Assembly: GCF_057098645.1 (NCBI RefSeq)
Contig: NZ_JBXSPU010000002.1
Reading direction: 5' to 3' (one strand)
Origin: a plasmid
DNA length: 64,000 bases
Shown: piece by piece, positions 27,001 through 33,000 of the stretch
Layout: every line of letters starts with the position of its first letter
Numbering within the stretch: position 1 is the stretch's first letter
Position numbers: made by a program

Positions 27001-30000
27001 GGGATCTCAATCAAATTCCTCGCCTTTCCACGTGCAGGTCTCAACTCCGTTGTCGCGGGGAATATGGCAAAAATATGGTGTGCGGCAAAACCTAATGATG
27101 CACTGGATGCCGCAATGAGCCCGACATCAACCATTCCGGAAGGACGGCCTGACGAGGCCTGCCTCGATACCATCAAATCGCATTTCCAGGTAGCTTCAAC
27201 TATTCCGCTTCAGGGTACGCCAACGATGGTAACGCTGTCGGGGAAACCTCAGCTATTCACCGGTTGGATGAGCCCGGAAAATCTGGTGACCCGCATGGGT
27301 GCCGAACAAAAGTGACTTTCCACGACTGCAAGAGGTGTTTATGAAATCTGCAATACTGACAACGTTAATGCTGGTGGCGGTTGGTTCTCAACCCGTCTTT
27401 GCTGCCAAATGCCAGTTCGGGGCCTGCGACGCCGACACTGTGGCCAGCAGTGAGATTCTGGTATCTGCTGCTCAGACAGATAAAGACGCAGTTTTAAAAA
27501 AACTCAATGATGCGACATCCCGCAGCGACGTGATGTCGAAACGGTTTGAGTCGTATCTGAGCAATGACAGGTTAAAGGTGAACACCGACAGTACCAAGAA
27601 AGGCCCTAGCAATGAAATCGCTAAGCCGAGGGATGAGTTGGCGCCGGTAAGGCAGCTGAAAGCCATTCGCCCCGAGCTGGTACAAACACCCATCTTCCAG
27701 CCCATTGTTGCGTTCTATGAACGTCTGGCCTGAGTGCGTCGCTGGGGGTTAGAAGATGTCGCTTTGGCTCAGCATTGTCACCCGGGCAACGGGATTGCCG
27801 GATAAGCGGTATTTAAATGATCCGGTGATCCTCCGTTATTACCAACAAAAGATCCAAAAGGCTCCTTACGCCCTGGTGGGATGGACTCTCTGTTTCATGG
27901 CAACCATTGGTGTGTCGCTGGGACTGGATCTTTCCAACCAGATGTTACTTCTCGTTCTGCTGATATTGATCTTTCTGATGGTGGTGCTCCAGGGGCGGTA
28001 CCAGTTCATGCATCCGGAAAGATGTATCAATGCCAAATTTTACCAAACGGTGCTGGACGATGCGTCAGTCTCAGATATTCAGAAAGCTCAGTTTGAATAT
28101 CTCTTCGTGACCAAAGTGGATGAGCTGACCATCGGTGATCTGTACCGACTCTATGATTTCAACAGAGGAGGCCGGTAAAGACGTGGCATGCAGGTGAGAA
28201 AAGTTAATTTGTGGTTGGTCGTTACAGTGCCGGTCATCAGTTCCAGGGGACCGAGGCGACGTAGTTTCCGGAGCGCAGCGGGGCATCCAGATTCCCGGTC
28301 AAAGCGTCAATCATTGCGGAATACGCCACGCTGTCCGATGGGATCGGCGCATTGCTCTGCATACTGACTTTAAGCACCTGCTGTGCATTTTTTCCCGCAG
28401 GGTAGACTTCCACATCAAGACGACGCCAGAAATGTCTTTGTGATACCGTCTCTGTTCCTACGATCCCACTGACCGGCTTATAGTCATAGTCCGTCTCAGT
28501 TTGCCCGTGCTTATCTTTTCGCGTTGTTTTCTTCTCGATAACATATCCGGTTATTCCCGTCACCGGTAGTTCACTGTATTGCAGATTCTCCTGGGTCTTG
28601 CTGTAACTGAATCTGAGAATATATTCGGGCTGATGGCTGGAAATATTAAACCCCTTACCCGTTAATCCGCTCGCAAACCGGGCTGCAAACATTCGCGACT
28701 GAATACTGTCATCCGGAGCAACAATTTCAAATTTCTTGCTGCCTACCGGGCGGGGCAGTAAATCGTACGCATCAACGTCATTTCCAAAATGATAACCGCA
28801 TCCACATAAGAACGTTGTGGCTGTTAGTAAGAAAAATTGCCGTAACATTCTAAATCCTCCAAAAAGGGTTCTTTAATGAATAATTCCGATTTACCGTGCC
28901 AGTATAATCGAACGCAGGCTGATAACTAACAAGTTGAAATGCGTAAAGGTGGCTATGATTAAATTAAATTATTTAAAACCCGTGGCGTCTGTTTTAATTT
29001 CTGCGGTGATTGCGACGGCTGGCTCTGTGTATATTACGTCGAAATATCTAAAACCCGATGTACCGGGTAACGACGAAATAGGACGAGTGGCTGCTTCCTA
29101 TCTGGTAAAAAATCCCCAGTATCTTCTCGAAGCAGGTAAGGCGCTAGAAAAAGAAAATACTAACGCTTCCCTTGAGCGGATTATCCCCTACGCACCGGCA
29201 CTCTTCGAGACCAAAGAGACACCCAATATCGGACCTGATAATGCGGCCGTCGCTGTTATTGAGTTTTTCGACTACCAGTGTCATTTCTGTATGCAGGTAG
29301 CGCCGGTTGTTGAATCTGTGTTGAGCCAAAGCACTGATGTAAAGTTCTTCTTTAAAGAATTTCCGATCTTCGCTGGCTCAAAACCCGTTTCCGCAATGGG
29401 GGCGGCGACAGGCCTGCATGTGTATCAGACATTCGGTGCGGAAGCGTATCGTAAGTATCACAACAATCTGATGACCAGTGCGTATGTATTCTTCAACAAC
29501 CAGCGTGCGTTTACACTCAATGATTTAGACATGGTTGTGAACAAATCCGGGTTCAACAGCTCATTCGGCGATCGGGAGAAAAGCCGCTATGAGAACGTTA
29601 TCTCCGGAAACATGCAGCTGGGGGAAGCTCTCGGGATTAACGGTACGCCAGGGTTCATTATTATGAACATGCAAAAACCCGACGCTGCAACGACGTCATT
29701 CATCCCGGGCGCTGTTGACGAGGCCACCCTGAAATACGCAATCCAGAAGGCCCGTGGAGGCTAAAGTTACTTTTCCTTCCGAAACTGGCCATGCCGGGTA
29801 ACACCGGCATGAACGTCAGGCTTTGACGACAAGTAACTCATTCCAGCGAGTGGTATACCGTGGGGACAGCATGGCCTGCTTCCCCCGGAAATCCTGATGA
29901 ATCCCTTCGCAAGCCAGAAACAGAGAGCCTCGATGCTCTTTGTTAAACCGATCCATCACCTTCATCAGTGCTTCACTGCCTCGCCTGGCGGGACGTTCAT

Positions 30001-33000
30001 CGAACAGGGATAGCTGCTCAGTGCCATCGGTCATTGACGAAAGCATCACGCCCGCCTTCGCATAATCTATGCCGGGTTTGTAGATTCGGGTCAGTATGGC
30101 GCCTGCCGCACTGACCAGGTCGCGGGTGTCCTGCGTCGCAGTAAGCGGCTCAATACCGCAGCTGCTGTACCGGGTTTCAGCTCTGGCAAACGGGCTGCTC
30201 TGGATAAACACGGTGATTTGGCGAGTCCAGGAGCCATCGTTTCGAAGCTGTTCAGCGGCACGGCCGGTAAAGAATGACACTGCCTCATGCATCTTGCTGA
30301 ATGTATTAAGGCGCTGGCCAAAGCTCCGCGAGACGATAATTTGTTGTCTGACAGGAGGGGATTCATGCAACCGGAAACAGGACTCGCCATGCAGCTCCCG
30401 CCAGGTACGTTCCATTTCAACACCGAATGCCTTTCGTAAAAACCGCACATCGCTGTCATAAAAGTCGCAGGCCGTGATGATCCCGTACGCAGCCAGCCGC
30501 TCACTGATTTTGCGGCCAATGCCCCAGATTTCCCGGGTACTGATGAGACTCAGCAGTTTTTTAATTCGGAATGGGTCTGTAAGGACGACCACACCACCAG
30601 TTGCTGCCCATCGCTTACTGGCGTAGGTGCATAATTTTGCGAGCGTTTTCGTGGTCGATACTCCAATCCCGCAGGTGAGCGAAAGATTGTGTAGCAGCGT
30701 TCGTCTGATCAGGCATCCGTACTCTTCAAAATCTACTATTTTGTCCATGTTTTTCAGTAGCATGAAGCTTTCATCCACGCTGTAACGATCGGTATCCTCG
30801 GCAAACCCCTCCAGCGTTTCATGAAACCGGTTGGAATAATCTTCGTACAACGTAAAGTTGGAGCTCCGTACCGCAATATGATGCTGCTCAATCAGATCCC
30901 GGCATTTGAAGATAGGCATCCCGCGTTTGAGCCCTGTATTTTTGGCGAGCCTGTTCATGGCGATAATGGTGGCATCGTTGTTGCTCGCGATGATGAGCGG
31001 GGATTTGGCAAGTTTGGGGTCCATGGCGCATTCAAATGCCGCGTAGGCTCCATTGATATCAACGTGCATGTACATGAGGAAACTGATTCAACGCAAAGGT
31101 GACAACGCCCCAGATTTCAAGAGTGTCCGGGTTAACAGGTATCGGCTTGAAGGCGGGGTTGGAGGGCATCAACATCAGTTTCGGGAAGGTCTGCAAAATC
31201 TTCACGGTAAACTCGCCGTCAACCAGCGCAACGACGATTGAGCCGTGCTCCGCAGTCAGTGACCGATCCACAACCAGTATGGCGCCGTCGTTTATTCCGG
31301 CGTCTACCATGCTGAGACCTGAGGCCCTGACAAAGAAAGTCGCGGGGCGATTACGAACCACAAAATCATGTAAATTCAGCTCATTGTCTTCGTGTCCGGC
31401 GCACGGACTCATCACCCCGCAACTCAGTAGGTCACTGAAAAAAGGGGTTGTATCACGAGGAGGGGATGCAAAACGTTCAGGGAATACAGACATGAGCACA
31501 CTCGGATTCAATACTGGATATTTAACCAGTATCACCAGATAAAGAGAAAAGATCAAATTTCAATGGCTCAGCATTCGGGAAAGATATCCCGGCACTAAGC
31601 CGTAATTTATGTAACGGTATGATATGGTTCAGCGGATTTTCATTCACGAACATGACAACAGGAATTCCCTATGGCTATCGATACCGACGATAACGATCCG
31701 GTAGACGCAGAGGCGTGCGAGAAGTACCTGGCACAGTTACGGGAACTGGAGGCATACAGGGCGTACCGAACGACAGCTGCGATTGACTGGTTCTTTGACC
31801 AGGCTACCCGGGCCATTCACGGTGAGTTGTGGCTAGCCGCCTGTACGACTTTCCTGAACGGGATTGAGACCTCACTGAGGGTGACGATGAAGCTGAAGGC
31901 GTCGCAGGCACAACCGCAGGCACCAACACCGCTGGTGGACTTAAGCGATATGGCCACACTCAGTAATGCTCTGCTAAGAAGGGCTCACCAGGCCGGTATG
32001 CCGGTGACACTGCTGGCCTTTCCCGACGAGCAGGATCTGCTGACCAAGATTGCGGACGGCGCCCCGAAACTACCCTATGCGGAAATCGTGAGGGTTCGGC
32101 ACAATTTATGTCACGGGAACATCCTGGAGCACATCATCACTGCGAGTGACGGTATGGGGGAGCCAGTCCGGTTATTCACACCTGAATGTATGCGTGATCT
32201 GGCGCAGACGCTGTCGGCAGTCTCGAAAGTATGGATTGCAGGCCTGCATCAATATTGGTGTGATAACAATTTATCTATGCCTTGAAAATTCCTGACGGAT
32301 TCTGTTCCCGGTGTCATTTGTACGCCGGGATGAAAAATGATGCTTCACAACAGGAATTAGCTGTTTATTGCTTAGAAAGATTTGTGATATAAAAATTATG
32401 TTTTGAACTTGATGATAGTAATGGAGAAACATATGAAAATTAAAAACATTGTATTGGCAGGAATAATTTCATTGGTATTTTCTGTTCATGCCAGCGATAA
32501 GCAGAATATAAAAAGGGACCCAATACCTTATTTAGGGTACGACGCAGTTACTTCAAACATGTGCATAGATGCTGGTGGTTTAACTGATCCAGTGGAGATG
32601 AGAAAGAAAGCTACTGAAACATTACTAATGATTCTTCACAAACAACCAGGTGATAAACTATCTAAACAATCAGAAGATACAATAGAAGCATTTGTTACAC
32701 GAACAAGATCCTCTTCAGATGACATATCTAAATGCCAGTTCAGTGTTTATGAAAGATACTGGGAAATAGTTCAGCCAAATAAATAACATAGATTTGCGTG
32801 AGATTTATAATACAAAACGCTCATTAGGTCTATGTCTTTAAAGGCGCGTGGCTTAATGGGCAATTAAATCCATACTCCTGCAATACATGCTTCAATCCTC
32901 AACTCGTTTGATAATGGCTGTATTTAATTTGCTGGATTCCACCATTTAAAATGGACAGGCTCTGTTTTAAATGAATCACCTGTTTCCGCATGCCAGGTTA

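Follow-up and report, generated by a model that had tools for sequence, protein, structure and literature searches.

An intact umuDC/mucAB-type operon on an IncHI1 (R27-type) plasmid backbone preceded by a near-consensus predicted LexA box

The palindrome upstream of the umuD-like gene in the 64-kb stretch of plasmid DNA analysed here (the window) reads as a near-consensus LexA operator, ordinary rather than unusual, to which LexA is predicted to bind. The two genes behind it are intact, and the locus is very probably a host-LexA-repressed, SOS-inducible DNA polymerase V (Pol V) operon belonging to the IncHI1 (R27-type) backbone. The features on which this reading draws are as follows, all on the minus strand.

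31059..31493, minus: umuD/mucA-like gene for an S24 autoproteolytic subunit, 144 aa, ATG start, the same as R27 WP_001395519.1
29816..31075, minus: umuC/mucB-like gene for a Y-family DNA polymerase, 419 aa, the same as R27 WP_000281816.1
31512..31531, minus: predicted LexA (SOS) box TACTGGTTAAATATCCAGTA, 18 nt ahead of the ATG of umuD, a CTG-N10-CAG core within a dyad with 10-nt arms
31551..31556, minus: putative -35 hexamer TTGATC, conserved across nine umuD promoters
31528..31533, minus: putative -10 hexamer GATACT, read from the sequence, 17 nt after TTGATC
29790..29811, minus: GC-rich hairpin CATGCCGG-N6-CCGGCATG directly following the umuC stop, found by RNA folding

The umuD and umuC genes

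Both open-reading frames are uninterrupted in the ORF listing, and umuD immediately precedes umuC on the same strand, overlapping it by 17 nt. The umuD product exceeds the cut-off of the NCBIfam UmuD model NF007621 (128.3 bits, cut-off 110) and matches Pfam Peptidase_S24, the umuC product exceeds that of the UmuC model NF002955 (443.2 bits, cut-off 431) and matches Pfam IMS, IMS_C and DUF4113. Aligned to E. coli UmuD (8gmt_B, 1umu), the plasmid UmuD keeps the Cys-Gly cleavage site, the ASGxSM serine and the FTVK lysine, with Cys25-Gly26, Ser61 and Lys98 corresponding to Cys24-Gly25, Ser60 and Lys97 of the E. coli protein. In UmuC, which was judged by alignment to K-12 UmuC (the PDB is without any UmuC chain), the catalytic acidic residues Asp6, Asp101 and Glu102 and the steric gate Tyr11 are present, as is a beta-clamp motif QLSLF (Q354-L-x-L-F358); the IncHI2 UmuC, E. 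coli K-12 UmuC and a 71%-identical relative share all four residues and the clamp motif. The view in the initial annotation that both genes are catalytically intact is thereby upheld, and the locus can be taken from its sequence as an intact umuDC/mucAB-type DNA polymerase V operon. An overlap "as in chromosomal umuDC", also described there, is loosely right: the genes do overlap, but by 17 nt here against 1 nt in K-12. Among relatives, the overlap is likewise 1 nt in IncHI1B, IncFIB and IncR, 13 nt in IncN and IncL/M, and 0 nt in the 75%-identical relatives. A longer mechanical ORF would start umuD at TTG 31556, this was dropped for ATG 31493 because the latter is the R27 RefSeq start and its ATG column is invariant in the alignment of nine promoters.

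The plasmid UmuD is itself a LexA-family S24 protein, and two published accounts describe Acinetobacter UmuDAb as binding an atypical SOS box (PMC11332147, PMC4807011), so a reading in which UmuD represses its own operon can be framed; we find it barely credible. At 144 aa, the protein aligns colinearly with E. coli UmuD (139 aa) from residue 15 on, the N-terminal DNA-binding domain by which the UmuDAb type is recognised is absent, a HumD-type NCBIfam model gives 71 bits, short of its cut-off of 120, and the host enterobacteria have LexA.

The DNA is identical to mucAB of R27 (NC_002305.1, Salmonella Typhi, IncHI1) over the 2051 nt tested, and R27 shares the neighbours of the operon (a DsbA-family gene, a 204-aa ORF and an 1111-aa ORF) with no difference at the locus. 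The region is matched at ≥99% identity by 214 plasmids, and the window as a whole matches a roughly 190-kb IncHI1 plasmid type of E. coli and other Enterobacterales, which is not necessarily R27 itself. The E. coli K-12 umuDC operon is alike in gene order, in the catalytic and processing residues and in a -35-like TTGATC, at 46% (UmuC) and 45% (UmuD) identity. The IncHI2 (R478-type) umuDC/mucAB is an orthologous locus with the same neighbours, the same 17-nt overlap and an identical -35 block, at 81% (UmuD) and 84% (UmuC) identity.

Sequence and scoring of the predicted LexA box

The full site TACTGGTTAAATATCCAGTA (31531..31512) has the form TACTG-N10-CAGTA, with a CTG-N10-CAG core CTGGTTAAATATCCAG at 31529..31514. 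An inverted-repeat finder recovered it as 10-nt arms ATACTGGATA and TAACCAGTAT at 31511-31520 and 31523-31532; of the four matches in the scanned 201 bases (31480-31680) it alone has separated arms, the other three being 6-nt self-overlapping palindromes. The palindrome noticed in the initial annotation is therefore real and has the spacing reported for it, and its CTGG-N8-CCAG core is present; what that description left out is the extent of the dyad, which reaches TACTG...CAGTA, and these outer bases are exactly the LexA consensus flanks. The box conforms to the published definition of a LexA box as a 16-mer CTG-N10-CAG (PMC2994835), and differs from the 20-nt consensus TACTGTATATATATACAGTA (TACTG(TA)5CAGTA) at 4 of 20 positions, as do the recA and recN boxes. 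The departures from the commonest base next to the core are G6 for T6 and C15 for A15, which probably cost the box some affinity.

We scored the site with a heterology index (HI) matrix rebuilt from the 18 E. coli LexA boxes in Table 4 of PMC3009722; a study of the Salmonella SOS regulon (PMC8072944) gives HI values but without box sequences, and the Table 4 set was used instead. As the matrix is not the original of Lewis et al., the absolute values given here are not comparable with published HI. The umuD box has an HI of 3.69, which ranks 5th against the 18 published boxes (range 1.84-12.23) and is better than 14 of them. The runner-up 20-mer in the window has an HI of 13.2, a gap of 9.5 units, and in 50 shuffles of the window not one 20-mer scored as well, so that the umuD box lies far beyond chance. 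The CTGG-N8-CCAG pattern recurs at 31787-31802, within the divergent 204-aa ORF, but at an HI of 18.1 this copy was ruled out as a LexA site.

The bases beside the core deserve separate treatment, as it was the G after CTG and the C before CAG that had been taken as deviant and had led to the label "non-canonical". Neither judgement holds. G or C stands next to CTG or CAG in 10 of the 36 half-sites of the published boxes, and the CTGG-N8-CCAG core occurs, on both sides, in the E. coli ruvA box CGCTGGATATCTATCCAGCA and cho (ydjQ) box CACTGGATAGATAACCAGCA, which lie upstream of UV-induced genes (PMC3009722, Table 4). The outer flanks of those two, CG..CA in ruvA and CA..CA in cho, resemble the consensus less than does the TA..TA of the umuD box, and it is on account of these poorer flanks that they score worse (HI 7.27 and 7.03, mid-ranking). 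With only four mismatches, consensus TA...TA flanks and a rank of 5th, the umuD box is a near-consensus one.

A sceptical reader could still hold that the box is degenerate and effectively non-functional, with expression constitutive or leaky and control exerted through UmuD processing and proteolysis. Both half-sites do carry the less common base beside CTG or CAG, and R27 mucA and mucB transcripts are detectable without DNA damage (PMC7366339). Moreover, with a robustness matrix trained only on sites without G6 or C15, the HI of the box rises to 9.62. Even so, proven, UV-induced E. coli boxes span this value, 7 of the 18 known sites still scoring worse; ruvA and cho share the same core; and the most conserved positions, TACTG and CAGTA, are intact and are kept in orthologues whose surroundings have diverged beyond alignment. 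We regard a non-functional site as improbable, and an ordinary LexA operator as the better description.

Promoter and conservation across relatives

In an alignment of nine umuD promoters including that of E. coli K-12, the upstream bases shared by all nine are restricted to TTGATCT, TACTG, one spacer T, one spacer A and CAG, while the flanking DNA is unalignable. The position of the box and its TACTG and CAG are kept in IncHI2, in relatives with 65-93% identical UmuD and in K-12 umuDC, and the boxes of IncHI2, IncHI1B, IncL/M, IncN mucA, IncR and K-12 have HI values of 1.8-7.4. The gap from each of these boxes to the annotated umuD start is between -10 and 26 nt, placing them on it or a short way ahead of it. 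In the relative with a 93% identical UmuD the box is changed in its left half only. K-12 umuDC has, like the plasmid operon, a single LexA box 18-19 nt before the ATG (TACTGTATATAAAAACAGTA), with T6 and A15 in place of G6 and C15, an HI of 2.00 against 3.69, and a distance from TTGATC to the start of the box of 17 nt against 19 nt here. The IncHI2 box, at the same aligned position, is the textbook TACTGTTTATACATACAGTA (CTGT...ACAG, HI 2.15); the IncHI1 box departs from it symmetrically, at both position 6 and position 15.

These comparisons bear on a further proposal, in which the dyad serves not host LexA but some other repressor encoded by the plasmid. No function could be recognised in the 204-aa divergent neighbour (31671-32285) or in several ORFs nearby, which leaves room for such a protein. 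However, the bases that never vary coincide exactly with the LexA motif and recur in the chromosomal E. coli umuDC, the 204-aa ORF is also found on an IncFIB plasmid that has no umuDC and is therefore not a dedicated partner of the operon, and UmuD is the only S24/LexA-like protein that Pfam and NCBIfam found at the locus. Scans of the neighbouring ORFs with Pfam, NCBIfam and PADLOC revealed no alternative repressor and no linked system. A different repressor is thus very unlikely, and the earlier suggestion of a weak LexA site or the site of another repressor gives way to that of a near-consensus LexA box (HI 3.69).

The sequence suggests a sigma-70 promoter overlapped by the single LexA box, the putative -10 hexamer GATACT covering the first four bases of the box. 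GATACT is found in the R27-type window and in 5 of 7 IncHI-type relatives (UmuD 93%, 74%, 75%, 75% and 65% identical), with AATACT in its place in the two IncHI2 plasmids, and the putative -35 hexamer lies within the invariant TTGATCT. A consensus promoter and terminator scan of 29600-31900 returned no promoter upstream of umuD, because the pair matches 8 of 12 consensus bases and the threshold was 9; the putative -35/-10 assignment is therefore drawn from conservation. At the other end of the operon, the hairpin at 29790..29811 has a 9-bp stem with a minimum free energy of -18.8 kcal/mol (z = -1.68), it has no T-run and does not appear in the terminator output of the same scan (29600-31900). 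It is possible, on this slight evidence, that the hairpin serves as a terminator common to umuC and the convergent dsbA-family gene.

Expected regulation and significance

From what is known of E. coli umuDC and mucAB, we infer LexA occupancy of the box, the promoter hexamers, inducibility by DNA damage and polymerase activity. In undamaged cells a host LexA dimer on the box TACTGGTTAAATATCCAGTA would block RNA polymerase; upon DNA damage, RecA-ssDNA filaments would provoke the self-cleavage of LexA and the operon would be transcribed. UmuD' would then arise as UmuD cuts itself at Cys25-Gly26 through its Ser61/Lys98 dyad, and UmuD'2 with UmuC would form an error-prone translesion polymerase. 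In the literature available to our searches, no experiment turned up that directly tests whether LexA controls IncHI mucAB.

The operon had already been annotated as mucAB/umuDC on resistance plasmids of the IncHI1 (R27) type, which makes the finding an ordinary one. An R27 transcriptome study names the genes mucA and mucB under "UV protection" (PMC7366339). With mucAB known in the R27 literature and an operator of standard LexA-box appearance, the result has little importance beyond correct annotation, and any further interest is small and quantitative: G6/C15 may give weaker repression than the IncHI2 or chromosomal boxes. One might speculate, although we think it rather unlikely, that the IncHI1 lineage changed both half-sites (CTGT to CTGG, ACAG to CCAG) and so tuned LexA affinity down, in which case Pol V would be induced earlier or more leakily than from chromosomal umuDC (HI 2.0) or IncHI2 mucAB (HI 2.15). 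Were such tuning real, bacteria that harbour IncHI1 resistance plasmids, S. Typhi among them, could have a raised mutation supply. Plasmids of this type play a major part in carrying multidrug resistance in S. Typhi and have lately done so for tet(X4) too, and an SOS-inducible error-prone polymerase on the IncHI1 backbone is relevant to antibiotic-induced mutagenesis.

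The mucAB operon and its plasmid carriers

Two uninterrupted, overlapping open-reading frames form the operon:
31493 (ATG) to 31059, minus strand, umuD-like, 144 aa
31075 to 29816, minus strand, umuC-like, 419 aa

The 144-aa protein is a Peptidase_S24 in Pfam and exceeds the curated cut-off of the NCBIfam UmuD model (128.3 bits against 110), the 419-aa protein carries IMS, IMS_C and DUF4113 domains and exceeds that of the NCBIfam "UmuC" model (443.2 bits against 431). Alignment with E. coli UmuD from solved structures showed that UmuD keeps the Cys25-Gly26 cleavage site, Ser61 (ASGxSM) and Lys98 (FTVK); for UmuC, comparison with the K-12 protein and with two relatives from plasmids showed that Asp6, Tyr11, Asp101-Glu102 and the QLSLF clamp-binding motif are retained. 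Conservation of these catalytic and processing residues supports the initial annotation of an intact umuDC-like operon in which both genes look catalytically intact. The overlap, however, is not as in chromosomal umuDC, as had been proposed: it spans 17 nt here and a single base in K-12, with 0 to 17 nt of overlap among relatives.

Over 2051 nt the operon region has 100% identity to plasmid R27 of Salmonella Typhi (IncHI1, NC_002305.1) and matches 214 plasmid records at at least 99% identity, and the outer segments of the window (two 25-kb pieces, 1-25000 and 39001-64000) gave 100% matches to plasmids of the IncHI1 type, ~190 kb in size, carried by E. coli and further Enterobacterales. RefSeq names the R27 genes umuD and "Y-family DNA polymerase"; an R27 transcriptome paper uses mucA and mucB for the same genes and describes them as "involved in UV protection" (PMC7366339). 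The operon is a known, annotated feature of a reference plasmid, the mucAB of IncHI1 plasmids. In two otherwise identical IncHI1 plasmids (NZ_CP016184.1, NZ_CP016183.1) an ISKpn26 (IS5-like) insertion splits the match in two, and the annotation divides the polymerase into a Y-family DNA polymerase piece and a separate DUF4113 domain protein; in some IncHI1 carriers, then, umuC appears to be disrupted.

Neighbouring genes

The operon is flanked by the following plus-strand genes:
26566-27315, plus strand, DsbC-like gene
28934-29764, plus strand, DsbA-family gene, convergent with umuC
31671-32285, plus strand, 204-aa ORF, divergent from umuDC
32403-32786, plus strand, 127-aa ORF
33062-36397, plus strand, 1111-aa ORF

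Pfam and PADLOC scans of the 204-, 127- and 1111-aa ORFs gave no matches, nor did an NCBIfam scan of the first. This ORF set is kept beside umuDC in IncHI1 and IncHI2 plasmids and also occurs on an IncFIB plasmid without umuDC; a 1114-aa counterpart of the largest lies near umuDC in L007, a relative with 74% UmuD identity. In L007 and in the 65% relative L012, umuD is immediately preceded by an SRAP (PF02586) gene in the same orientation (L007 1688-2359; L012 16-684). A DSBA-domain gene is also found downstream of umuC in two IncHI2 plasmids (L002, L003) and a 75% relative (L009), and K-12 umuC adjoins dsbB; the proximity of Dsb genes to umuC may be coincidence. Elsewhere in the window, the resistance region gives an Rfam AAC_AAD_leader / attI match (54609-54684, minus strand; 72 bits against a gathering score of 56), which points to a class 1 integron there.

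Scoring of the palindrome upstream of umuD

The CTG-N10-CAG core described by the initial annotation is present at 31514-31529, but the dyad is longer than was described, with arms ATACTGGATA / TAACCAGTAT at 31511-31520 and 31523-31532 (inverted-repeat finder). It contains one candidate 20-mer:
31531 to 31512, minus (gene) strand, predicted LexA box TACTGGTTAAATATCCAGTA, ending 18 nt before the umuD ATG

Outside CTG and CAG the box has the consensus flanks TA...TA, and the departures from consensus are G6 for T6 and C15 for A15 (box positions 1-20), just inside CTG and CAG. We computed a heterology index (HI; lower is closer to known boxes), following Lewis et al., from a symmetrised count matrix of 18 LexA boxes that precede UV-induced genes of E. 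coli (PMC3009722 Table 4). The site scored 3.69 within a known-box range of 1.84-12.23, bettered by four of the 18 (sbmC, umuD, istR2, dinD) and ahead of uvrB (4.88), recA (5.74), sulA (5.91), cho (7.03) and ruvA (7.27). The next best 20-mer of the 64-kb window scored 13.2, and shuffling the window 50 times produced no 20-mer as good as 3.69. The high score is robust to matrix composition, at 4.52 with ruvA and cho removed and 9.62, still within the known-box range, with all G6 or C15 sites removed.

G after CTG, or C before CAG, is found in 10 of 36 known half-sites, and two published boxes, those of ruvA (CGCTGGATATCTATCCAGCA) and cho (CACTGGATAGATAACCAGCA), have the exact CTGG-N8-CCAG core (PMC3009722 Table 4). 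Given this shared core, the HI, four mismatches to TACTGTATATATATACAGTA (equal to recA and recN) and a fit to one published SOS-box definition, CTG-N10-CAG alone (PMC2994835), the label "non-canonical" is unjustified. A second CTGG-N8-CCAG palindrome, GCCTGGTCAAAGAACCAGTC at 31787-31802, lies within the 204-aa ORF, at a distance of ~270 nt; with an HI of 18.1 it is not LexA-like and is probably due to chance.

Comparison of umuD promoters and proposed regulation

A promoter-fragment search of the plasmid collection returned two types, IncHI1 (212 records at at least 99%) and IncHI2 (about 860 records, roughly 79% over the box-to-ATG segment). Their alignment shows conservation of the block ATTTGATCTTTTCTCT, of the box and of the leader, and none upstream of the -35 region. 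At the aligned box position IncHI2 has the textbook TACTGTTTATACATACAGTA. Relatives gathered by protein search and contig look-ups, plus other plasmid groups, each have a single good box, placed at the annotated umuD start or shortly before it (gaps 2-26 nt); the L012 box overlaps the annotated start, which appears mis-called. An IncFIB locus (L015, NZ_AP022015.1) has only a right half-box (…TTATATATACAGTA) upstream of umuD, adjoining an ISL3-family transposase gene, which suggests that an ISL3 insertion removed the left half-site and promoter of this copy.

Boxes upstream of umuD in relatives (percentages, UmuD identity)
93% relative (L006): TACTGGTTAAATATACAGCA, HI 3.86
74% relative: TACTGTATACATATACAGTG, HI 3.81
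75% relatives: TACTGTTTATATATACAGTT, HI 1.84
IncHI1B: TACTGGTTATATATACAGTG, HI 3.40
IncL/M: TACTGTATGTATAAACAGTT, HI 3.12
IncN mucA: TACTGTATAAGTAAACAGTG, HI 5.64
IncR: TACTGTATGCATAACCAGTA, HI 5.27
E. coli K-12: TACTGTATATAAAAACAGTA, HI 2.00

When nine promoters, K-12 among them, are aligned, the upstream columns that never vary are TTGATCT, TACTG, a single T and a single A in the spacer, and CAG, a pattern we read as a phylogenetic footprint of a LexA operator and a -35 element. The initial annotation had offered a weak LexA site or the site of a different repressor. A dead or very weak site, leaving expression constitutive, is unlikely because of the box score and conservation. The operator of a different plasmid repressor is also unlikely, as conservation falls on the bases of the LexA motif, which the chromosomal umuDC operon shares, and the divergent 204-aa neighbour is present on a umuDC-free plasmid too; UmuDAb-like self-repression is excluded because this UmuD has no N-terminal DNA-binding domain. 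As judged from sequence, the palindrome is an ordinary, high-scoring predicted LexA box of the known mucAB operon. In the IncHI1 lineage each half-site has the rarer base, a symmetric arrangement, and the 93% relative is intermediate, with the rarer base on one side only; the symmetric G6/C15 change could lower LexA affinity somewhat.

A putative promoter, with a 17-nt spacer, overlaps the box:
31556-31551, minus strand, putative -35, TTGATC
31533-31528, minus strand, putative -10, GATACT, its last four bases being the first four of the box

This pair agrees with the consensus at 8 of 12 bases and was absent from the output of a consensus promoter scan. A Dam GATC site lies within the -35-like TTGATC, itself invariant in the nine promoters. 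LexA on the predicted box would occlude the -10 and start site; by analogy with established knowledge of umuDC/mucAB, RecA-stimulated LexA cleavage would then derepress the operon, UmuD would be cleaved to UmuD' and UmuD'2C would assemble.
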